Assembly: GCA_964016885.1 (NCBI GenBank)
Contig: OZ024753.1
Location: forward strand, 31,682,001-31,746,000
Length of the DNA: 64,000 nt
Reading direction: 5' to 3'
From: Eledone cirrhosa
Taxonomy: Eukaryota
A program made the position numbers and the translations under genes. Numbering within the stretch: the stretch's first letter is position 1; every line of letters begins with the position of its first letter. The notes under the pieces were generated by a model, which saw only the letters and a program-made list of their open reading frames with translations, made no database searches and was not told where the DNA came from. Positions 7,167-61,930 of the stretch are shown here, one piece after another.

Positions 7167-7780
7167 TTGAGTTTATGTTGGTTGTATACCAACACCTCAG
7201 TATGCAGGCTGGAGCACTCGACGAAGTGCGCAGGTTGGTTTGGTTACTCCGGAGTAGTGTAAAATAAAGTTAAATAAAAGTCAAATGATTAAAATTTAGC
7301 TTCGTTTATTACTGCTATATATATTTCAGTGACAGCCATCTTTGGCTGTGACCTCTTCAGGCAGTTTGAATTAGTATGGTATAGACAAGTACATATGTTA
7401 TTTAGGTGTATGATATTGTCAATACTCTGATATGCCCAGTTCCTTGTTGGGTTGTTAATTCACTGGGGAACTGGAGTCATATGAATTCAAACAAACGAAT
7501 TTTCGTGTCACAGGTCCCCTTCTCCTCTCATTGGTCAGTTATTAGAACATTCCTCATTCTAAGTGTTGTTATCCAGTTCCCCAGTGAATTAACAACCCAA
7601 CAAGGAACTGGGCATATCAGAGTATTGACAATATCATACACCTAAATAACATATGTACTTGTCTATACCATACTAATTCAAACTGCCTGAAGAGGTCACA
7701 GCCAAAGATGGCTGTCACTGAAATATATATAGCAGTAATAAACGAAACTAAATTTTAATCATTTGACTTTTATTTAACTT

Positions 7781-7787
<7 letters not shown>
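7167..7787 (-). mobile_element. Fold-back PLE-like element, family G
   Basis: About 215-bp near-perfect inverted arms (7261-7475 / 7572-7787), ~95-bp spacer, ~95-bp unpaired tail 7167-7260, flanked by microsatellite. Homologous to 46881-47279. Confidence 0.8.
7682..7736 (+). ncRNA. Minimal type I hammerhead ribozyme (mirror copy 7311-7365, -)
   Basis: actgc-CTGAAGA-ggtcacagccaaagatggctgtcact-GAAA-tatata-TA-gcagt. Stems I and II pair and stem III is palindromic. AATAAA follows. Confidence 0.85.
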
Positions 7788-7834
<47 letters not shown>

Positions 7835-11798: not shown

Positions 11799-12181
11799 TA
11801 TATTAATAAGAGGAATTCCAACTTTGTCTGATTTACTCGTTTTATTTACAATCCTTTAAAATATATAATGGTATTATAATGAAATAGTATGATAGAATAT
11901 TAAATTCTAAGTGTTAATTGAACAAGTACTTTCATGCTTTCGCAATCTTCAGGTTCATAATATGTGGTGACAGTCGAGTTTGCAATTTTCCACAGTTGAA
12001 AATTGCAAACTCGACTGTCACCACATATTATGAACCTGAAGATTGCGAAAGCATGAAAGTACTTGTTCAATTAACACTTAGAATTTAATATTCTATCATA
12101 CTATTTCATTATAATACCATTATATATTTTAAAGGATTGTAAATAAAACGAGTAAATCAGACAAAGTTGGAATTCCTCTTA

Positions 12182-12189
<8 letters not shown>
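11799..12189. mobile_element. Fold-back element with ~190-bp arms and a 7-nt loop
   Basis: Essentially perfect palindrome centred on cacagtt (11991-11997), abutting (TA)n. Confidence 0.85.
12031..12069 (+). ncRNA. Very short hammerhead ribozyme (mirror copy 11919-11957, -)
   Basis: tgaac-CTGAAGA-ttgcgaaagcat-GAAA-gtac-TT-gttca. Stem II is tgc/gca closed by a GAAA tetraloop; stem III is the palindrome gtac. Confidence 0.75.
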
Positions 12190-12228
<39 letters not shown>

Positions 12229-12231
<3 letters not shown>

Positions 12232-12642
12232 AAAGTTCTATTTAAATTGTTGGGATACAACAAGCAAATATTTTTATAACTGATATAAAGCACTCGACAA
12301 GTATTTGGAGTAAATATACGATATTAACAAATGGAAACTATATTTATAAAACCATATCTATTTTATTATACATATTTCAAGGATACCATGTTAAATTATG
12401 GTATGCTTTCATCAGACAAAATACAATATATACCAGTTTTATAAATAAATATTGATCCCTGTTGTCTTCCAAAAGTAACGGTTGCATTTTGAAAGGGTAT
12501 GTCAATATTTATTTATAAAACTGGTATATATTGTATTTTGTCTGATGAAGGCATACCATTATTTAACATGGTATCCTTGAAATATGTATAATAAAATAGA
12601 TATGGTTTTATAAATATAGTTTCCATTTGTTAATATCGTATA
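12229..12642 (-). mobile_element. Fold-back PLE-like element, family H, copy 1
   Basis: Arms 12315-12455 / 12502-12642, unpaired tail 12229-12314, (TA)n on both sides. Homologous to 18453-18832. Confidence 0.8.
12534..12598 (+). ncRNA. Minimal hammerhead ribozyme (mirror copy in the left arm)
   Basis: tattttgt-CTGATGA-aggcataccattatttaacatggtatcctt-GAAA-tatgta-TA-ataaaata. Confidence 0.8.
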
Positions 12643-12660
12643 TATATATATATATATATA

Positions 12661-12827
12661 AAACGAAGGAAGTGTGGTAAGGAACCAGGTGGACCATAAC
12701 GTACCAGAGTACTCGATACTTTGGGTAGTAGAGTGGGTAATAGGAAAAGGTTCAATCCATTTCGACGTAGAAGAAATAGCCGTCGAAACAGCTTGAGCTC
12801 TACCGTCGGGGTCCTGAACCTTTTCCT
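12661..12827 (-). mobile_element. Family F element, diverged (other fragments at 6951-7015, 13590-13660, 16875-16925, 45794-45853)
   Basis: Shares ggtaaggaaccaggtggaccataacg and gccgtcgaaac..cttgagctc..ccgtcggggtc. Short inverted ends taggaaaaggttca/tgaaccttttccta. Confidence 0.7.
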
Positions 12828-12938
12828 ATATATATATATATAATGATGTATTCATAAACGTATATGTGCATATATATAATTATATATAAACACACGCATA
12901 TATATATATATATAATCATATATAATGTGTGTGTGTGT

Positions 12939-18452: not shown

Positions 18453-18827
18453 TGCGGAGGTTATATTTAATTTGTTGGGATTCAACAAGCTTAAACATTT
18501 TTATAACTGATATAAAGCACTCAACATATTAGTGGATTAAATACACAATATATTAATAAATGGAAACTTTATTTATAAAACCATATTTATTTTATTATAC
18601 ATATTTCAAGGCCAACCAAGGCAAATTATGGGGCGCTTTCATCAGTTAAAATACAGATTTGTTTTATAAATAAATATTGACATGCCCAGAAAAAAGACAA
18701 TATTTATTTATAAAACAAATCTGTATTTTATCTGATGAAAGCGCACCATATTTTGCCTTGGTTGCCCTTGAAATATGTATAATAAAATAAATATTGTTTT
18801 ATAAATATAGTTTCCATTTATTAATAT

Positions 18828-18832
<5 letters not shown>
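18453..18832 (-). mobile_element. Fold-back PLE-like element, family H, copy 2
   Basis: Arms ~18543-18680 / 18698-18832, same tail as 12229-12314, (TA)n on both sides. Confidence 0.8.
18724..18789 (+). ncRNA. Minimal hammerhead ribozyme
   Basis: tattttat-CTGATGA-aagcgcaccatattttgccttggttgccctt-GAAA-tatgta-TA-ataaaata. The core is identical to 12534-12598 while stem II has diverged. Confidence 0.75.
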
Positions 18833-18901
<69 letters not shown>

Positions 18902-33988: not shown

Positions 33989-36696
33989 CATTTAACATCA
34001 TGAGCTCCTTGGGTTTAATCCCACTGTATAGCACTAAGTGCAAGTGTGTTTGTCATAGCCTCAAGTTGATTCATACATTGTAAAACAAATTGAATAGACG
34101 AAAATTGTGTGAATTGGACTACTGATGTAATTCAAAGGTCCAGCTTTGTCATACGTTGAGACATTCTGGTTGGCCTTGTGAATTACCTTGGAGTACACCT
34201 GTCTGTTAATTTACCTAGAATTAATTCTCTTCGTCGAAAGAGGCGGAATTTATATCCATGTCCTGCTATGAATCTATGTTTCTTTCTGTTCTACCGTTAT
34301 TTTTGTTGTTGTTACTGTTGTTTGCCACAAATACACGCGTTAGGGTGGGGTGTATTTTTTCAAAAATTACTCGACTAAAAATATTGAGGCAGGGATGGCA
34401 CTTTTACAGATATTAAGATTCCAAATGTTTAAACCTCAACTCATTACTCTGAGGTGAATGACAAAAGTTCGTCAAGGCATTGTTGTAACCATTTATATAT
34501 TTGGCACGGTAGTCATTTGTATTGTTATTCGTATATTGAGTTCAGATGAATACGGATTCTTCACAAGAGGGGTGCTAATAGCCTCCTCAATAATGTAAAC
34601 AAACATACTTCATAGTTATTTTCAAACACAAAAACATCCAATCAAATGACACTGGTGTCACGCAGACATCTTCAAAACGGAGACTACAATTAAGAACCAC
34701 CAACGAATCTTAAAACTGTTTACGCTTGAATAGTAGATGACAATATAAACCCCAACAACGACAGTATTCTTGTGAAGATTAACGCCGCCGGGCATCATTA
34801 GCATTATGTCCAGTGCAATTTGCCAGACGAAGAGGAAGGAGATTCTCCACCCACATCTTTGTCAAGATAAATTACTCTTTTGTGCCAACACTCATTCAAT
34901 GATTGTAATTCAATTCCGTGTCTTTAATGAAACGAAGCCACGAAATGTTAGTTTGTTTGCTTTGTTTCGTGTTTGTGTTGTGTGTTTTGGTTTTCCTATA
35001 TTGTGTATCAACACAATTTATCACTCCGACTGTCTTTACTATAGAGAGGAGCAGGAAGAGGAAAAGACGAATATAAATGACCACAGTATTGACATACAGC
35101 ATTGAAGATAAAATTAATATTTCGCGCTGAAGAAATATTTCGAAGAGCAACATTTAAACAGATTTTCTTTCTCGGTTTTCTATTTATAGATTTAGATATT
35201 TTCCTACATATTTCCCTTTTAATGTTTTGTTTCTTTTGTTGATGTTTTTATTTTTTAATTTTACCCATTTTGTTTAAATTTTGTGCACATTTTATGAATA
35301 TCTCATCTGAAGTTCGGCCATTTAGAACGCTTTTCCATTTCAATGTAATATTATAGCATTGCTCATCTGTAGCAAGATATTTAGTGTCGCATAAGAAGTG
35401 TTCTGTAAACAACTTCAGAAAGCAACTATGTGTTGTCTCTATAGTTTTCAGCCTTCAGATATAATATATTCACATTTCGCTCTACAGTAATTCTACTTGT
35501 TGGAATTGGGTTTTGTCTTTTCTTTACACATTTGTTTTGTTTTGTTGTTTTTGTGAGGGGGGGGGGGGTTCTAGTCACAGTGAAATCTTCTTTAATTAGA
35601 CTCTGTAAAACTTTGGATTATGATATATTTCTCAAGTTCTCGATGTTCTGATATTTGTTTCTTGCCATCTCCTTTACAAATCCAAAACTGCTATTTCATA
35701 TCAACTGTGAAGAACTCTTAACAACACTTGCTATTATGAAGATTAGACGAAATCAAAGAAAACATAAATATGAAAATAACAAGCCAAAGAGTCCCTTATA
35801 GCGAAATAAATTTTGAAGGAGAACATATAATGATGTTTTGGAAATATTGCCAAAATTATAATTCTTAAGATTTCAGTTATTCTTAGTCTTGGCACTAAAT
35901 GGTGAAATAAAAAAAATTATAAAATGGAAGCGTTTATCAGTTCTGAAAGGTAAATAACATGTAGCTGGTTCTTGGTACGCTTATCAAATAGAATTAGATG
36001 GCAATTTATGCTTTTAAGTTAAACATTTCTAAGCCCTTCGTGTAATCCTAAAAGACATCAGTAATTCTATAGTAAGTGGAGGCACAAATATAGGAAACTA
36101 CTTGCTAGTTCTTACAAACACACACATTTAGGTATGCACACACATGAAAGTATATATTTATATATATACACTCAAACATATATATATATATATGAGCCAA
36201 CTTAGACAGCTTCATATGCAAATGATATTAATCACCTCATTTACACAGACGATAAAACTATATACTCTCACCTGTTTTCAAAGTCCCGCAGTTCCAAGAG
36301 TGGGAGGGATCGTCGGATGAGAACCAGTTCAGTTCGAAATGCATCGGCGATTGTCCCCCTTGTTTGTGCTGGACACCGCCAGGTGGCGATAGCTGCCGGT
36401 GTTTCTACATAGCTACGGCTTTCGAAATCTTTATTTATGAACATAACGTATTTCTTTAGAAATACAAAATTCCAATACACTCATATATATATGATGTATT
36501 TTACATTGTAAACATGCAGAATCTCATGGTGCGTGGGCGTGTGTGGTGTGGTATAGTATAATAATTATTATAATAATTATATATATATATATATGTATAT
36601 GTATAAATGAGCGTGCATGTCTGTACGTGAATACACGCACACACACACACTCACATATTTATATATGTATATGTATATATATACATATATACACAC

Positions 36697-36727
<31 letters not shown>

Positions 36728-39385
36728 TATATATATATACACATATATGTGTTTATATATACACATATATATATATCTATATACACACATATATATATAT
36801 ATACACATATATATATATGTATGTGTGTGTATATATATATACCCATATATATATATATATATACACACATATATATATATATATATATACCCATATATAT
36901 ATATATATATGTATACATATATATATATGTACACATATATATATATATATATATACATATATACACACACATATATATAATATGAGAGTGTGTGTTTGTG
37001 TGTATCTATTTATGTACAAATATGTATGTTTATTTATACATATTTATATATATATATAATTATTATATTATACTATACTATATACGCCCACGTACTATGA
37101 GATTCAGCATGTTTATAATGTAAAATACATCATGTCGCTTGAAAAATATATTAATATTGCCAAAATAAGCTATTTTCCTACAGCTACTTATATTCACTTA
37201 GAAAGTAAGTCAAGCAGAGAAACACTGCGACTTTCAGCAGTGATATACTTGGCAAATATGAAATAACTCTTGAATACATTCGAAAAACGTTGTCTATGGA
37301 TACAACTTTAAAACAGGTTGGAAGAGGATTCTTCTTACTCTCTGTTATTTATACTATAACGTAATCTGAAAAATGTTCAGCAAATTTTCTTTGATCTAAA
37401 GAAGATAAGACATTCCTATACCAGTTTATATATATATATATATGTATGTATATATATATATATATGCATATATATTTATATATGTGTTAATGGGTTTACG
37501 TTATATGTTGTCAGACCAAAAATACCCAGTAACATCAAGATACATTACTGATTATGAAAGTCGTATTCATTGCATTATAATTACTTCAACACAATAGATC
37601 TGGTTTCAAATCATGATTTGGAGATTGTATTTGAGCAGAATTTAAATATGACATTCCAGCAGAGACAGGGATAAAATACGAAAGTCCATAAAACCTTGCA
37701 AAGGTCTATAACAATACTAATCAATTTTGAAAGCACTTCTAGTTTCGATATGATTGGTTTCCTTGGAGAATTACATTGTCTGACATTTCAGATGCAGATA
37801 TTTTAATGTATTTCATCTCGCTTTGAAGTAAGAAATGAAAAGAATTTCTAAATGTTTCTTATTTTCCTTCTATATCTCATTATAAATCTCCTTGAACTTT
37901 TCTTAATGCCTCGTAGATTTGTTGTCCGACAAATGGAGATCGATAAATTTAGAGTCAGACAGGAAAACCTAAGGCAGTGCTCCATCATCGCCACAGTCAA
38001 ACGAAAGAATAAACGTAAAGCAGCTAATTCCGATATGGTCTCCATAAAACATTCTAAAAGTTAAAACATGGCGGTGGTATATGTAAAATTAGTTTCAATA
38101 AGTCAATATAGTTAATATAGTTTATTAATTATTTACATTAATGTATTTTCTTAATGTCATAAAAGTTATAATATATTAAATTCGTGTAATAATTGTATTT
38201 GAATAGTGCATTAATCTAATAATTGTATAATATATTACATTAGCGTAATTCTATGTATATAAATATTTATATAAATATTGTTTTAACAGAGAAATCAGCA
38301 GTTAAATAACAAATATTTCATTTGTCGAGAATTTAAACGAGATTTCCATTCAATCTAATGATATATTAGTTAATATTTTTTTAATATTCCATACAATTTA
38401 AATACATTATTTTCGTTTTCTACCAAATATGTGTGTATGTGCGCGTATTTTTTTCCTTTTTGTGTGTGTATGAATATAGATATACATGTGTATACATATA
38501 GGTAGGTAGGTTTATGGATTTAAATGACATTAAGGGAAGGTGTAGTGTAGAGGAGAGAAAATGAATCTACATAGGTTCAATATGTGTACAAATGACAATC
38601 AAAATTTGAGCCTGTGGCTTGAATCGACATATTGTTTATTATAAGGGGACTCAACTTGCTGTCCCAAATCATTGGGTCTGTTTCAAGTGTTTTAAGACAA
38701 TACCACATTAACTCTGTGTCTAATTACTAATTACCTACGTTATAAGATATGAAAATAAACAGCCGACACCGTACATATTAATTTTATCTACAGCAGTAAC
38801 TAATTCTCACATCAGTCTCGTTCTCGTTAGGTATTAATTTCTAAACTTGAACAATGCCGCCTACCACCTTTCTTTTTCATTAGTGAGTGTTCTCATCAGT
38901 GAGTCGCCTTCCTACTGATGGGTTCCCTCCACTTGTCAATCAAACTATAACCCCGCCCCCGATGAGATAAATGTGAACCAAATTAAATGAAACAGATATG
39001 TTTCTATATTTGCTATCGAACCGGTAAAAGCTTCACCGTAGGACAGAAGATCCTTAGAGTATATATATATATACAGTTATATAACATGTATCGTTACCTT
39101 GTAAGCCACCTCGTTGGTAGTGCAGTTTCGAGCATTAAGGTGGTACTGTAAAAGATATAACATATATGTGTTTGACTTAGTGTGTGTATGTATTCCCCAT
39201 ATTCACGAGTTGACTCTGCCCTTGTGATTGAAATTAGATCAACAGAAACTATATGAAAGCCTAAATGGATTGTATTGAAATCTTGTCGCACATTTTGTCA
39301 CATTGATCCGCTAATAACTCGAGGTGATCGATCGTGAAACGCCAGTCACCCATGAACAAACATAATGATGCTATACTGATACCTC

Positions 39386-39428
<43 letters not shown>

Positions 39429-39513
39429 TATATATATAATATATATAAAGAATAATATATATAAAGAATGAATAATAACAGGTAGACATCATAAAAAGGT
39501 AATTTATTCCGTG

Positions 39514-39625
39514 TGCTTACAAATGTTTCCACGGTGGTACTACAGCCTAGTTATGGTATGTGCAAATTTACAACTATTTGCAGAACTCAAATATCCAATG
39601 CTGTGACCACTTTATCCTCAGAGCA
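39514..39625 (-). ncRNA. Type I hammerhead ribozyme with long stem II
   Basis: Minus strand reads tgct-CTGAGGA-(~85 nt with gtggt/accac and acagc/gctgt pairing)-GAAA-catttg-TA-agca. Confidence 0.65.
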
Positions 39626-40120
39626 GACTGGTTTAAATGTACAATGTAAATACCCTTAAGTGGGGTTGTTGGAGAAGATAGAGTAGAAAAGGGAGAGAGA
39701 AAAGTAGGGGAGAGGGAGAGAGAGAGAAAGATATGCAGGGGTTGGAGAGATAGGAGAGAGTGGTTTGTAGATATCTTAATCAAAAGTTATGGTAGGGGTT
39801 TATTATACTGGTTACTTTTGGAGAGATGCGTTGATAGTTAAGGTCGGAATTATTTATTGCCCCAGAGGGCAGGTTCATAGATGTGGAGAGGAAGGTAGGC
39901 CAAAGGCGAGAGAGAGAGAGAGTGTGTGTAATGGATGTAGAGAGAGAGATAGAGAGGGGACAGACGAAGCCTATGTGGTGAGTGAACTCTGGGTTCGTAG
40001 TAGTAATCTGAGAATTGCACTGAGTTACCATTTATAGTGATAAGCAGTGTATTGTCTTGTAGTGTGGGGGAAGAGAAGGTGGTTAGCTAGAAAGCGATGT
40101 TATAGTTACGGGTTCGAATG

Positions 40121-40264
40121 TTAAGTTATTTTATAGTAAGAGAATTTAGCTTTTAGTTTGTGGTTGCAGTATAATGATCGTTCGATTCTATCGTTAAGTA
40201 GTTTGTTTTTGGATTTTAATATGTAAAAGAGTTCAAGGTTACATAACCTGCAGTACTTCAATCC
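40121..40264 (-). pseudogene. C-terminal fragment of a Penelope-like element ORF (GIY-YIG endonuclease tail)
   Basis: Manual translation GLKYCRLCNLELFYILKSKNKLLNDRIERSLYCNHKLKAKFSYYKIT* fits the CxxC..E...LLNxRxE...CxH motif at the end of some PLE ORFs. Not in the ORF track. Confidence 0.75.
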
Positions 40265-40393
40265 ATGGATTGAAGTACTGCAGGTTATGTAACCTTACGG
40301 GGGTCGATAAAATAAAGTACCAGTAATACACTGAGATAATTGCTGGCCTTGTCCCAAAACTAGAAACAATTATATATACATATATATGCGTGT

Positions 40394-41214: not shown

Positions 41215-41282
41215 TACATACATACATACACACATACATACATACATACATACATACATACATACATACATACATACATACA
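40916..41282. repeat. Compound microsatellite (CA)n-(CACT)n-(CA)n-(CATA)n
   Basis: Directly visible. Confidence 0.95.
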
Positions 41283-41422
41283 TTGTTACACTTTGGGAGG
41301 GTCATGTTGCCAATAAGAAACACACGCACCAGTATTGGCAACATGACCCTCCCAAAGTGTAACAATATCGGTTTCAACACACGATTTCAGATAAAGAATC
41401 TTGCTAAACAAATTCAGAAACG

Positions 41423-44805: not shown

Positions 44806-44810
<5 letters not shown>

Positions 44811-45008
44811 TTATAGAAGGAGCTTCTACAGGACTAGTACTGTTTCATTCAGATGAAATCTTCAGGAAGGGCTTCCTGAAGATTTCATCTGAATGAAACA
44901 GTACTAGTCCTGTAGAAGCTCCTTCTATAAAATAAAAAATGTTACTCTGCCATGTATTGAGTACCTTACTTACTGTGGTTATCCCCGACTCAACCCGGGA
45001 CCTACGTA
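44806..45008 (+). mobile_element. Minimal fold-back element: 64-bp arms plus ~70-bp tail, in (TA)n
   Basis: Perfect palindrome 44806-44935 with a 2-nt centre, then a unique tail. Confidence 0.85.
44871..44919 (+). ncRNA. Type I hammerhead ribozyme (mirror copy on - strand)
   Basis: gcttc-CTGAAGA-tttcatctgaat-GAAA-cag tactagtc ctg-TA-gaagc. Stems I and III pair; stem II is ttca/tgaa. Confidence 0.8.
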
Positions 45009-45009
45009 A

Positions 45010-45045
<36 letters not shown>

Positions 45046-45223: not shown

Positions 45224-45851
45224 GTTTATGTATTTGTGCGTGGCTTTTGAAACGAAGTCAGGGAAAATGGAGTCTGTAGTGTTACTTGTTTTGCTTCACT
45301 TCAACTCTAATTTCCAACCTTGCCAACGCTGTGTATCCCGATTATGGAATTTCAAAGCGAAATACTTAGAATTTACTGTTTGGAAGATAATAACTTTCCT
45401 GCGATATCTAGTAAACATATTTCTGTGTACGAACAGAAAATTGTACGTTAATATCCATAGTAACTGACTTAGCCTAGTGAATGTTAAAAGGAAATGAAAT
45501 ATAGTTTCTCATAATAGATTATCTCCTATATTTCGAATACGAAGGAAAGATATATCTTCGGATTGATAAGATATCTTATATCAGCGCGTTTTCTGAAATA
45601 CCTTTTTCTAAAATTAAGCATTTCATTTTATTAAAAATAGTGGATAAGTCTCATAAATCTGATATGAAACGTTTGGCAACTCTCAACTCTCATATATATT
45701 AGATATTATTTACCCTCTTGCTACCAAACCACCTGAAACAAGTCCTTGTTCTATGGTACAATACTGTTTGTTATATCTATCTAAAACATTTCTAAGTATT
45801 GAGTACTTTGGTGCGTTATGGTCCACCTGGTTCCTTACCACATTTCCTCCG

Positions 45852-45889
<38 letters not shown>

Positions 45890-45920
45890 CTCTATCCTGA
45901 TATATATATATATATATATA

Positions 45921-46632
45921 TCAGGATAGAGCTAGATTTAAAATTGTTAGACCATTACTCAACAGAGTACTCCTTGCATGGGATAGTAGAGTATGGTTAT
46001 ATTATAAAAAATCGGGGCCCGAACATTCTTGCAGCGTTCTCCTTATCAGGCGTGTTTTTGAAACTAAGTTTCTTACATAAAATTATTATAGAAATCTCAG
46101 ACAAATGGGAAAACTCGGCGTATGGAAGCTGTTAGAATAGCAAAATACCGTCAAAGCGGCGTTGGGTAAAATATTACCTCGAATGACAGAGTTCAGCGGC
46201 TCGATGTGAGTTGACTCAAAGGAAGGAAGAGAAGATAGGAAGGAGGAAATAGAATGGATGAGAGCGAACAGGTCACAAGCATTAAAATATGCTCTTCAGA
46301 TCTCAACATCCTGCAGTTTCGAGTCAACTCACATCGAGCCGCTGATCTCTATCCTTCGAGGTAATATTTTACCCAACGCCGCTTCGACGGTATTTTGTTG
46401 TTCTAACAGCTTCCATAAGCCGTGTTTTCCCATTTTTCTGAGATTTCTATAATAATTTTATGTAAGAAACTTAGTTTCAAAAACACGCCTATTAAGGAGA
46501 ACGCTGCTTATATAGTAGGCTTTAAGAATGTTCGGGCCCCGATTTTTTATAATATAACCATACTCTACTATCCATGCAAGGAGTACTCTGTTGAGTAATG
46601 GTCTAACAATTTTAAATCTAGCTCTATCCTGA
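45921..46632. mobile_element. Fold-back element with ~300-bp diverged arms
   Basis: 45921-46219 is the imperfect reverse complement of ~46317-46632. (TA)n on both sides. No intact hammerhead core seen. Confidence 0.75.
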
Positions 46633-46649
46633 TATATATATATATATAT

Positions 46650-46848
46650 AACGGAGGAAATGTGGTAAGGAACCAGGTGGACCATAACGTACCAAAGTAC
46701 TCAATACTTACGGTAGTAGAGTGGGTAATAGGAACGAGTAGGACCCCGACGGCTGAGCTCAAGCCGTTTCGACGGCTAATTCTGGACTAATTCAGTCCAG
46801 AATTAGCCGTCGAAACGGCTTGAGCTCAGCCGTCGGGGTCCTACTCGT

Positions 46849-46853
<5 letters not shown>
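46650..46853 (-). mobile_element. Fold-back element, family F
   Basis: Tail 46650-46728 and hairpin 46729-46853 (5-nt loop). Nearly identical to 57069-57256 but with a different fold-back point. Confidence 0.8.
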
Positions 46854-47778
<925 letters not shown>

Positions 47779-52170: not shown

Positions 52171-52820
52171 TCAAATAGCTAATAATGTGGTTATATTGGA
52201 AACATAAAATGAAGTTGTGATATAACGTTTTCCTTCTTAGAATCATAGAAATATTTAAGATGTGGAAACAATACATGAATAATAAATAAACAAAGAGAAA
52301 AATAAAATATGTATGTGACATCTTAGTTTATTATATCTGCCAGCTTCTTACATTAGGGATCATTGTCTCCCAGCTTGTGAGTTTTAATAAGAAATGGTCA
52401 GCTCATAAACAAGCACACCGTACACCAGGTGTGCTATGTTGATACATAGTTTTACAGAAATTTATTATATAATTAAATGGAACATTTTTAAGAATGAATT
52501 GTTCTCCTTAGAAACATAGAATGATTTAATATAGTGGAAACAAGACCAACGATAATAAAATATTTTATTGATTATTCAGTAATATTTGCCACTGTTAAGA
52601 AAATATCGGTACATATGTGTGTGTGTGTAAAAGGTAAACAGAAATAACAAAACAAACGACACAGTACATGCAAGAAATATATTTGTTTAACGCTTGAAAG
52701 AGAAGGAAGAGTCTTAAGGTTTCGGACACTAGTTCTTCACCAGGAGATAGAAGATAATAGAAAGTATATATATATATATATATAGTTAAAAGAATAGAGG
52801 TGTAACACACAAGTTATTAT

Positions 52821-53294
52821 ATATTGGTAAACGGAATAGAAAATGCTGACAAATTGTTCACAGTTGAAAAATGGTTTAATTAGGAATAAAAGAGTATTAG
52901 TGATTGTATGGGTTAGTATTCAGTTGTGGTTTTAAGTTTTTAAGTTTTTACCGGTTGCGCATTTCTAAATGCTTTTCATAAATAATTTTGAGATAGAGTG
53001 TCCGTGCTGTTTGCTCTGATCTGATTAGTTTTGGGAATTCTACCTGTTTTTATGTTAAAAAAGTGGCTCCAGCGTTATTTTTGTGTTGCAAAAATTCTTG
53101 TGGTCAAAACAATTTTGATTGGTCGGTAGAGGTCATGTGAATGTAAAAAGTTGATTTTGCGCCAAGACTGTTTTTATGTTAAAAAAGTGGCTCCAGCAAA
53201 AATTCTTGGTCAAAACAACTTTGATTGGTCGGTAGAGGTCATGTGAATAAAAAAATTGGTTTTGCGCCAAGATTGAGAAATGACTCTTTCACAA

Positions 53295-53331
<37 letters not shown>

Positions 53332-54050
53332 GCGTGGTAGTAGTAGTAGTAGTAGTAGTAAGGTGTTCGATGCTGCGACAATGGCCAGCAGCGATGTGTG
53401 TCAAATGGCTATTAAGATAAGTGTGTGTGTGTGTGTGTATAGCAGAGTGATTCGTGGTGGTAGGGATGGTCAGTAAGAATGTGTCTGAAAGCAATGGGGG
53501 GTATTTTAGCATGTCAAAAGATAAGTGTGTGTGTATGTGTGTGTGTGTATAGCAGAGTAATTTGTGGTGGCAGGGATGGTCAGTAAGAATGTGTCTGAAA
53601 GCAATGGGGGGTATTTTAGCATGTCAAAATATATTTTTCAGCTTTTGTCTTATACGGAGAAGTGCGTGTGTGTGCCACCCAGCGCACAAGGAATCTTACT
53701 TCATTAACAAATACGGACCCCGTCTAAACACTTCTCCCTAAGACGAACCCACAACATACACACGTCAACATACATACCTACATCAGCACACATCTCTACC
53801 CACATATAAACACAATGACACACGTAAACACACATGCTCTATGGTGCAATACAAAGAAATATATATGCATATATATGTATGTATATATGTATATATATAT
53901 GTAGTGAATATATGTATGTGTATATATATATAGTGAATATCATTTCACACCTTTTATTGTTAAGATTTTTGATGTTCTATTAAGAGAACCGATTTTACTG
54001 AAAAAATCGAATAATGTACACCATTTTACCAGGGGGAAAAAAATACTGGT

Positions 54051-54089
<39 letters not shown>

Positions 54090-54265
54090 CACAAACACAT
54101 ACACACGCGTACATCAACATACAAAGAGACTTATATACACACACACACACACGCACTTCTCCGTATAAGACAAAAGCTGAAAAATATCTTTTGACATGCT
54201 AAAATACCCCCCATTGCTTTCAGACACATTCTTACTGACCATCCCTGCCACCACAAATTACTCTG

Positions 54266-54321
<56 letters not shown>

Positions 54322-54493
54322 ATCTTTTGACATGCTAAAATACCCCCCATTGCTTTCAGACACATTCTTACTGACCATCCCTACCACCACGAATCACTCT
54401 GCTATACACACACACACACACACACTTATCTTAATAGCCATTTGACACACATCGCTGCTGGCCATTGTCGCAGCATCGAACACCTTACTACTA

Positions 54494-54539
<46 letters not shown>

Positions 54540-55016
54540 ACACATATTTGTTGTGAAAGAGTCATTTCTCAATCTTGGCGCAAAACCAATTTTTTATTCA
54601 CATGACCTCTACCGACCAATCAAAATTGTTTTGACCAAGAATTTTTGCTGGAGCTACTTTTTTAACATAAAAACAGTCTTGGCGCAAAATCAACTTTTTA
54701 CATTCACATGACCTCTACCGACCAATCAAAATTGTTTTGACCACAAGAATTTTTGCAACACAAAAATAACGCTGGAGCCACTTTTTTAACATAAAAACAG
54801 GTAGAATTCCCAAAACTAATCAGATCAGAGCAAACAGCACGGACACTCTATCTCAAAATTATTTATGAAAAGCATTTAGAAATGCGCAACCGGTAAAAAC
54901 TTAAAAACTTAAAACCACAACTGAATACTAACCCATACAATCACTAATACTCTTTTATTCCTAATTAAACCATTTTTCAACTGTGAACAATTTGTCAGCA
55001 TTTTCTATTCCGTTTA

Positions 55017-55022
<6 letters not shown>
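52821..55022. repeat. Large inverted repeat: ~850-bp arms, ~470-bp spacer
   Basis: 52821-53674 is the reverse complement of ~54144-55022, including shared internal tandem duplications. The arms differ mainly in microsatellite length. Confidence 0.92.
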
Positions 55023-55067
<45 letters not shown>

Positions 55068-56089: not shown

Positions 56090-57068
56090 GGAAAGAAAAC
56101 TGTGACAACACTTGAACAGTAATCACCGTTGCTATTTCACTATGTATGTGCAACACCGCGACAGTTGATTGGTGCGTTGTATTGTTTCAAAATAGCGTCC
56201 ATTTTGTAACATGTTATCAATGCCATGATGGAGCAATACTATCTAACTCACAGCATGATTGAAGGACCTAAACATGTCAGAAGATCTATTAAAAAAGGAA
56301 GTTAATTTCACCAGAGAAAAAAATGTTTAGTAATAGTTACAAATGCACTTTCTCTGACACCTTTTTTCTCTTTAAGTTTCTTACATTTCAAGTTGTTTTG
56401 CCTTTTTATCTGTATTTTATTGTTTAATTTTTCATATTGCTTTTGTTGGCTCTCCCTCTCTCTCTCTCCCTCTCTCTATTTCTCTATCGCTATATCTCTA
56501 TCTCTCTCTAAATCTTTTTTCTCGCTCTCTCCCACTCTCCCTCTCTCCCACTCTCCCTCTCTCCCACTCTCCCTCTCACTCTCTCTCTCAATCAATCACT
56601 CTTTCCCTCTCACCTTTTTCACCTCTCTCTCCCTTTCTCCTCTCTCCGTCTCTGTGTGTATATATATATATATATATATACAGGTGTGTATGCGTGTACA
56701 GTATATATATTCACACAAATGTACACACACACACACACACACAGATTTCTCAAATTTCATTTCGTGTGTCATTTTTATCTGTATTGGTTTTATTGTTTTA
56801 ACTTTTTATAATGCTTTATTTGTTTTAATCTGTTGCTGTATTTTTATCATCTCGTTTATATTCTTCTACCACTTGCCATACTTTCGCTATCTTCTACTTA
56901 ATCTTGTTTTTCTTTACCCTCTTATATACACTGTCTCACACTTCCTCACTATAACTCTTTCTGTGTTTATATATATATATATAACATATATTTGTGTGTA
57001 TGTATATATATATATATATAATGCTTGTGAGAGAGAAATAACCTTATATATATATATATATATATATA

Positions 57069-57253
57069 TAGGAACCAGTAAGACCCCGACAGCTGAGCTC
57101 AAGCCGTTTCGACGGCTAATTCGAATTAGCCGTCGAAACGGCTTGAGCTCAGCTGTCGGGGTCTTACTGGTTCCTATTACCCACTCTACTACCTCAAGTA
57201 TTGAGTACTTTGGTGCGTTATGGTCCACCTGGTTCCTTACCACATTTCCTTCG

Positions 57254-57256
<3 letters not shown>
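57069..57256 (+). mobile_element. Fold-back element, family F (108-bp perfect palindrome plus tail)
   Basis: Palindrome 57069-57176 containing a hammerhead 3' half (GAAA-cggcttgagctcagctg-TC-ggggtc). Tail ...ggtccacctggttccttaccacatttcc. (TA)n on both sides. Confidence 0.8.
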
Positions 57257-61346: not shown

Positions 61347-61390
<44 letters not shown>

Positions 61391-61391
<1 letters not shown>

Positions 61392-61873
61392 GGGGTAACA
61401 GATTATTGTTATAGGTAGTCCACTTAAGTGTCGTCCAGTTATGGTACTCCGGGTAGTGGATGATATCAACGCTTGGCTAAGTTTGACTCAACAAGACGTT
61501 TCCATAGTGATGTTGCGAGTACGCTGTAATTCCTATGTTGTAAACACTTGGAGTAATGATAAATCAGGAAAGAAGAGTGACACGGTTTGCGATACAAAAA
61601 AGGTTTTTAATCTCATTGCTGACAATTGTTTCTCTGAACTGGTAGGTCTAGAGATCGCTACCCGCTTGTTTTCACGTTATTCGATCACCAATACAAAGTT
61701 ATAACCAGTCAATTCATCCGATGAATTGACTGCTTATAACTTTGTATTGGTGATCGAATAACGTGAAAACAAGCGGGTAGCGATCTCTAGACCTACCAGT
61801 TCAGAGAAACAATTGTCAGCATTGAGATTAAAAACCTTTTTTGTATAGCAAACCGTGTCACTATTCTTTCCTG

Positions 61874-61879
<6 letters not shown>
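61391..61879 (-). mobile_element. Fold-back element with ~160-bp arms and a ~170-bp tail
   Basis: Palindrome 61559-61879 centred at 61719, (TA)n on both sides. The arm reads cCGATGA...GAAA-caattg-TC-agcatt, a hammerhead truncated at its 5' core. Confidence 0.8.

Positions 61880-61930
<51 letters not shown>

Follow-up and report, generated by a model that had tools for sequence, protein, structure and literature searches.

A 5'-truncated Penelope-like element of the Hydra clade with a loop-free hairpin in Eledone cirrhosa, and the probable origin of the hairpin by priming from both target strands

The window analysed here, a 64-kb stretch of the Eledone cirrhosa genome, contains a 5'-truncated copy, the 3' 0.8 kb, of a young Penelope-like element of 3.18 kb. 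Read on the minus strand, the insert begins with a 31-bp inverted arm, continues with 47 codons, a stop codon and a 3' UTR of ~660 nt that includes a hammerhead-like motif, and ends in (TA)n. Comparison with other copies of the family showed that the main arm (39458..40265, minus strand) extends from position 2372 of this Hydra-clade element to the end designated A and carries no tail. Its coding part (40121..40264, minus strand), identified by comparison with the ORF of locus L062, corresponds to residues 729–775 of a 775-aa protein containing RT and GIY-YIG folds; the frame itself (40124–40264) is terminated by TAA at 40121–40123 and contains the motifs CxxC, LLNxRxE and CxH. The 3' UTR, or pseudo-LTR (39458..40120, minus strand), was delimited by comparison with intact copies, and the type I hammerhead-like motif within it (39514..39625, minus strand) by core search, constrained folding and comparison with family copies. 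AATAAA (39503..39508, minus strand) lies immediately 3' of this motif. A role as the poly(A) signal determining where the element stops was considered and rejected, given that the element continues for ~45 nt and its copies are devoid of a poly(A) tail. The 3' junction is formed by a (TA)n target run (approximately 39388..39457, without strand), accompanied by a short stretch in which the final bases of the element are partly repeated. No second copy of the element was detected within the 64-kb window. A preliminary description of this DNA had reported the 47-aa C-terminus with its three motifs, the hammerhead followed by AATAAA and the (TA)n junction, as well as a perfect 62-bp hairpin exactly at the 5' truncation that is joined through shared CCTT bases to the 3' half of a SINE; all of these features were recovered, the hammerhead as its two core halves.

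The hairpin is a perfect palindrome (40235..40296, without strand) composed of two 31-bp arms, 40235–40265 and 40266–40296, with no loop between them. The longest zero-loop arms found in 20 mononucleotide shuffles of the window measured 7–12 bp. The centre of the palindrome, between 40265 and 40266, is the exact point at which homology to the intact copies ends (element position 2372), and the inverted arm (40266..40296, plus strand) repeats element positions 2372–2402 of those copies. The last four bases of this arm, CCTT (40293..40296, plus strand), are at the same time the first bases of the 3' half of a high-copy SINE-like repeat (40293..40372, plus strand). We infer the SINE label from the high copy number and from the presence, in other copies, of a B-box-like motif. 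Among the seven other window copies retrieved by motif search, six read ...TCATCCTT or ...TTATCCTT at the CCTT site and one has CCTC, so that the four bases are native to the SINE as well as to the hairpin arm. At least four shared bases are expected in ~1.4% of random joins (simulated on the element's own composition). Microhomology-mediated joining, as had been suggested for this junction, is likely. The 5' half of the SINE is kept in all seven other window copies and is missing from the copy adjoining the insert. Its absence on both sides of the insert makes a deletion of target DNA likely; no empty site was found, the duplicate of the region described below being filled too.

In order to place the insert, we searched the 3.0-Gb genome with the 47-aa peptide, which yielded at least 150 scored matches at 98–100% identity among at least 29,485 candidates. 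The 149 matches outside the window were grouped into 134 loci and, together with 24 of 30 loci from a DNA search (the remaining six being duplicates), gave 158 other loci; these are the best-scoring matches, mostly from contigs C1–C4, rather than a random sample. At eight of ten loci that were read we found complete ORFs, nine in total, all with the same start methionine and ~775 residues. The repeat unit of the full-length element is 3,176 bp, and partial tandems (pLTRs), inverted 5'-truncated copies and a tail restricted to one side are all present in the family. Two fixed 3' ends recur, A and, ~140 nt further on, B. The peptide of the insert is identical to the L062 ORF in 46 of 47 residues, with five synonymous and one non-synonymous codon differences, and the window copy shares 89% identity with L062 (the youngest reference), 96.5% with L018 and 97%, over 431 bp, with its best genome matches. 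The family is young and has many intact copies elsewhere in the genome. The window copy itself is ordinary debris: as it retains only 47 codons, it is a dead fragment unable to supply any protein. At one locus, L033:637-9470, two identical intact ORFs lie within a near-perfect palindrome of 8.7 kb whose outer ends are A and B. A sister family of the same clade is represented by L276:15-690, with 53% identity in the C-terminal third of the protein and 66–73% DNA identity over parts.

The 775-aa ORF carries the motif YRDD and is matched by 666 proteins at E-values of 1e-10 or better, the best 120 of which are 33–42% identical to it. A structure model of the full-length protein was built from an alignment with 96 of the matching proteins (pLDDT 88.9), and in a Foldseek search with this predicted model the top nine rows were telomerase RTs (best E-value 2e-9). 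The last 142 residues, folded alone as a model of the endonuclease (pLDDT 92.8), gave no Foldseek match at E 0.001. In structural comparison this model was closest to I-TevI (Z 9.3, rmsd 2.7, 89 residues aligned), and the three rows that follow, with Z-scores of 5.5–7.5, include T4 EndoII (Z 7.5) and the GIY-YIG domain of UvrC (Z 6.5). In sequence-based comparisons neither the ORF nor the 47-aa peptide scored above the Pfam cut-off, searches of the PDB by sequence and by profile returned no RT or GIY-YIG match for the ORF, and the Pfam GIY-YIG cut-off was passed by one of 15 relatives (P0056). Judging by the predicted models, the ORF encodes a single Penelope-like protein with a telomerase-like RT fold followed by a C-terminal GIY-YIG fold. 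The link between the insert and a Penelope-like ORF that had been proposed therefore holds, the peptide matches in the genome leading to ORFs with both of these predicted folds and the intact copies encoding the 775-aa protein.

The same description had pointed to Neptune, Naiad and others as possible positions within the Penelope-like elements; the assignment to Penelope-like elements stands, and the clade is a different one. The Hydra clade is characterized by RWK and DKT motifs, a CxCX5C linker, loss of the CCHH finger, CxxC and CxH motifs around the conserved E and N, and insertion into (TA)n (PMC8557442, in the parts available to us). In the 775-aa protein RWK is found at residue 37 and DKT, changed from DKG, at residue 115; they are present in 71 and 87 of the 96 aligned proteins, respectively. 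The CxCX5C linker, at residue 635, is shared by 95 of the 96, and the residues C, C, E, N and C of the CxxC and CxH motifs around E and N are invariant in 76 aligned proteins. Neither the CX2-5CxxC linker nor a conserved cysteine pair between the two GIY-YIG strands, as expected for a CCHH finger, was found in the query. Membership in Neptune, Nematis or Naiad was accordingly rejected, as the linker and the finger (and, for Naiad, an N-terminal EN) are not those of the present protein. On its motifs and (TA)n insertion the family is a new member of the known Hydra clade, with which, as far as the accessible text of PMC8557442 goes, it also shares the single RT and GIY-YIG ORF, inverted 5'-truncated copies and a tail at one end only. 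A published Hydra family, Hydra-1_Obim of Octopus bimaculoides, measures 2,507 bp and has a short-stem hammerhead (Craig et al. 2021, PMC8557442, in the portion consulted). The N-terminal half of the present protein is visibly homologous to it when compared by eye, but the two are clearly different families, the present one being 3.18 kb rather than 2.5 kb long, with many young intact copies. Its tail of ~140 nt likewise exceeds the 30–40 bp described for Penelope-like elements in the available sections of the same paper.

The core halves of the hammerhead-like motif, CUGAGGA (39615–39621) and GAAAC...GUA (39518–39529), are located on the minus strand and would be connected into a 4-bp stem I, an extended stem II of 85 nt, GAAA and a 2-bp stem III, with predicted cleavage after 39518. 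Both halves, together with stems I and III, are preserved in 77 of the 84 distinct copies compared. In the window copy a C close to the foot of stem II is replaced by A, subfamily changes affect N7, the base after A9 and the loops, and no compensatory pair changes were seen in the family copies. In three copies the 85-nt spacer could form an elongated stem II capped by a hairpin (z −2.2, −1.5 and −1.9 relative to mononucleotide shuffles), and the constrained hammerhead fold cost 1.9, 3.9 and 4.3 kcal/mol above the minimum. The unconstrained fold of the 151-nt ribozyme region was no better than that of shuffles (z 0.32), and a local Rfam search gave no hammerhead match in the region; across the window the best 150 of 289 Rfam rows were microRNA-like matches to microsatellites. 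Where stem III is minimal, Penelope-like hammerheads show weak cleavage, for the most part in the dimeric form (PMC4209133, as far as available). The present motif is an unusual predicted ribozyme, its 85-nt spacer differing from the short stem II of the Hydra rows in File S2 of PMC8557442, in the part of that file at hand.

To find out how general the head-to-head arrangement is, we analysed the 158 other loci. No inversion is present in 58 of them, 11 of which are cut by the locus edge, and the remaining 100 hold 101 head-to-head junctions. At 68 of these both outer ends are fixed, at 23 one is internal, at four both are internal, and six are cut by the edge. Among the 68 insertions with two fixed ends, 66 combine A with B, and A/A and B/B occur once each (binomial p 8e-18 against one half), with (TA)n flanking 59 of the 66 A ends and 64 of the 66 B ends. 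In 23 of the 66 A+B insertions the shorter arm contains sequence that is absent from the longer arm, so that these shorter arms can be neither copies of the first cDNA nor cDNA fold-backs; 43 of the 66 are also compatible with fold-back. The second arm of the window copy is internal, which places this copy in the minority. Simple cases of this kind form 17 rows (including two duplicates, L051/L052 and L205 counted twice), in 12 of which the second arm starts upstream of the 5' end of the main arm and in 16 of which it ends in flanking DNA other than TA; 12 of the rows need an RNA template and five permit snap-back. The arms overlap by at least one base at 73 of the 101 BLAST junctions, compared with 44% expected for exact random joins, the observed figure being an upper one because BLAST overlap tolerates mismatches. 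A comparison of arm with arm at 22 loci, two of which matched wrong segments, found a locus's own arms to be best or near-best partners in some cases and not in others, and is weakly suggestive of one shared template.

The near-exclusive pairing of A with B points to both target strands priming on one RNA, and we consider it likely that the hairpin of the window copy, too, goes back to reverse transcription of a single element RNA primed from the two cut strands of the target. For the family as a whole, the endonuclease would nick the two strands within or close to (TA)n, one of the resulting 3'-OH ends would start synthesis at A and the other at B, and the two cDNAs would stop early and be joined head to head, often through 1–5 shared bases. 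In the window copy the first strand would have started at A within the TA run, and a target end lying within the SINE, annealed through CCTT to an internal site of the RNA, would have served as the second primer. If both cDNAs were extended to one and the same base, which was probably the 5' terminus of a broken RNA, a loop-free palindrome would result; the target DNA from the TA run to the middle of the SINE would have been lost. Exactly symmetric centres occur at two of the 101 junctions (L033 and L076; permutation p 0.056), and the run-off of two cDNAs at an RNA end thus rests on few cases within the family. It is favoured by a short family that has a nearly fixed 5' end and near-perfect centres in 14 of 30 copies; the corresponding numbers for two other short families are 3/25 and 0/25.

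For the window hairpin taken alone, priming by both target strands and snap-back of a single cDNA predict the same sequence. According to the latter explanation, which we regard as possible though clearly less probable, the first-strand cDNA stopped at 2372, folded, copied 31 nt of itself and was joined to the other target end through CCTT. The two arms are identical and start at the same base, as snap-back would have it; L033, with its palindrome of 8.7 kb, and L076 share this symmetry, and the 4-bp overlap is explained equally well by either process. The hairpin, however, has no loop, and the intact relatives, which read ...GGAG ahead of the truncation point, offer no self-complementarity from which a hairpin could be started. 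Snap-back is, moreover, unable to produce the 23 A+B insertions with sequence exclusive to the shorter arm or the 12 internal-arm rows that need an RNA template, and by itself does not predict near-constant A and B at opposite ends. Simple fold-back is therefore not the general mechanism of the family. An improbable alternative places self-priming on an antisense template before integration, which is how palindromes at inverted junctions of rotifer Penelope elements are interpreted in the accessible part of PMC3846280. Head-to-head copies could indeed be transcribed both ways, but most junctions of the present family are non-palindromic and have arms that start at unrelated positions, and the fixed sense-strand ends A and B fit the priming on sense RNA observed in vitro (PMC11167929, as far as available).

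We also considered whether the hairpin might have been created during assembly or be the scar of a later repair event, in either case independently of retrotransposition. Among the contigs and reads placed on 40000–40362, a region swamped by other copies, none listed spans the inverted arm at 40273–40285, though contigs assembled from short reads are expected to be broken at palindromes anyway; nor was an empty site seen. Loose ends in four read runs nevertheless agree with the CCTT junction between hairpin and SINE, and an inverted duplicate of the region (L166), ~97% identical to it and situated at a distance of 0.4 Mb, carries the same insert and the same junction. That duplicate differs from the window by substitutions and repeat lengths, and the identity of the junction argues against an assembly artefact. 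One arm is internal at 23 other family junctions as well, and an origin of either kind is very improbable. The duplicate, which comprises much of the window, lies at about 32.09–32.14 Mb of contig C13 (L111, L141, L166, L171 and L298) and represents either a segmental duplication or an uncollapsed haplotype.

Several elements of priming by both target strands have precedents. One-sided tails, palindromes at junctions and microhomology have already been published for Penelope elements (PMC8557442 and PMC3846280, in the parts available). Like the present family, the Penelope elements of Adineta vaga (Arkhipova et al. 2013, PMC3846280) display head-to-head pLTRs, palindromic inverted junctions, microhomology at the 5' junction and an optional tail on one inverted pLTR; antisense self-priming is proposed there and, in the text at our disposal, arms with unrelated starts are not accounted for. 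With a purified Penelope protein of Anolis, both strands were cut and extended and synthesis began at two RNA sites bounding the tail; the strands did not differ as to the start site in vitro, which counts against the reading given here (PMC11167929, accessible portion). This element, Poseidon PAc (Frangieh et al. 2024, PMC11167929), thus resembles the present family in its two fixed RT start sites on either side of the tail, its AT-rich targets and the cutting and extension of both strands, for which a dimer was predicted. It belongs to another clade, however, and in the available part of that report the two sites are not paired with the two ends of an insertion, whereas in the present family 66 of 68 insertions combine the two.

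During L1 twin priming the second target nick primes internally on the RNA, generating a 5' inversion with microhomology. Twelve of the 17 internal-arm rows resemble this process, from which the present family differs in that the second strand is mostly started at a fixed site and that one stretch of sequence is often present in both arms. Within the literature searched, mostly of the non-subscription kind, we found no relevant report of twin priming in Penelope elements. A more far-reaching model, in which Hydra-type proteins perform obligate twin priming as a dimer at two fixed sites of one RNA, loop-free palindromes arise by run-off and the hammerhead of the family is active with its 85-nt stem II, seems to us evenly balanced between being right and wrong. 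Penelope integration is still unsolved, and the family offers intact ORFs, two base-exact ends and more than 100 readable insertions. The A+B pairing is a sharp prediction for an in vitro assay; were the model true, the intact ORFs would provide a direct test of how Penelope-like elements make inverted, tailed insertions.

Short head-to-head elements between (TA)n runs are found elsewhere in the window, at 7185–7790, 12228–12646, 18455–18839, 44806–45010, 46880–47280 and 61390–61880; most of these six have hammerhead cores and all have a one-sided tail. A further fold-back family with a one-sided tail (46650–46852, 57066–57256 and 12660–12830) showed no hammerhead core in a scan and no genome matches; the genome search with 57123–57252, from the element at 57068–57252, likewise returned nothing. 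The insert had been put forward as the source of the machinery that mobilises the short elements. At the level of class this is upheld, the machinery being of the Hydra type, but it is not supported for this particular family: three of five short families run upstream into their own, different Hydra ORFs, which are 35–47% identical at the amino acid level. In L145/L229 and L155/L230 the 7260–7787 element leads into a Hydra ORF that is complete in length but frameshifted, with 47% identity in the RT; the 61400–61880 element continues in L317 into the end of a Hydra ORF, with L307 as a bridge; and the 44806–45008 element continues in L292 into the end of another ORF, its upstream sequence being common to L277, L280 and L286. 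The ORF of L276 was rejected as a partner of the 44.8-kb element, as it ends in its own TA run. For the 12230–12646 element a Hydra ORF was found 1.6 kb upstream at one of five loci, making such a link possible. The short ribozyme fold-backs of the window are therefore mostly the 3' ends of several different Hydra families and not a separate kind of element.

It is unlikely that the protein of the insert's family additionally mobilises these short fold-backs in trans. The layout is the same, with (TA)n flanks, head-to-head arms and a one-sided tail; the tails of several families open with a similar ACTC...GAGT-type motif, those of the insert's family and of the 7.3-kb element both, by eye, with ACTCCGGA; and the partner ORFs of the short elements that were read all carry stops or frameshifts, while the insert's family has intact ORFs. 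Against this, a comparison of ten short window elements with the insert's family at the DNA level gave no match better than E 0.17, the elements at 7260–7787, 44806–45008 and 61400–61880 have upstream Hydra ORFs of their own, and no cross-mobilisation between families is reported in the available part of a rotifer study (PMC3846280).

Located a few bases beyond end A, the ACTC...GAGT-type hairpin motif opens the tails in several families that are unrelated to one another; in the insert's family (L062:1781-1800) its form is imperfect, and this form recurs in every one of the 25 tail variants listed. L167 is a nested palindrome of 6 kb, in which other inverted elements lie between inverted arms of the 44.8-kb family. 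The window also contains a tandem array (1529–2223) whose units measure ~78 bp and which is bounded by inverted arms of 25 bp, and other long inverted repeats at 11799–12189, 36491–37133, 45793–46710, 52818–55026 and 41282–41366, which reach up to 885 bp at 95% identity.
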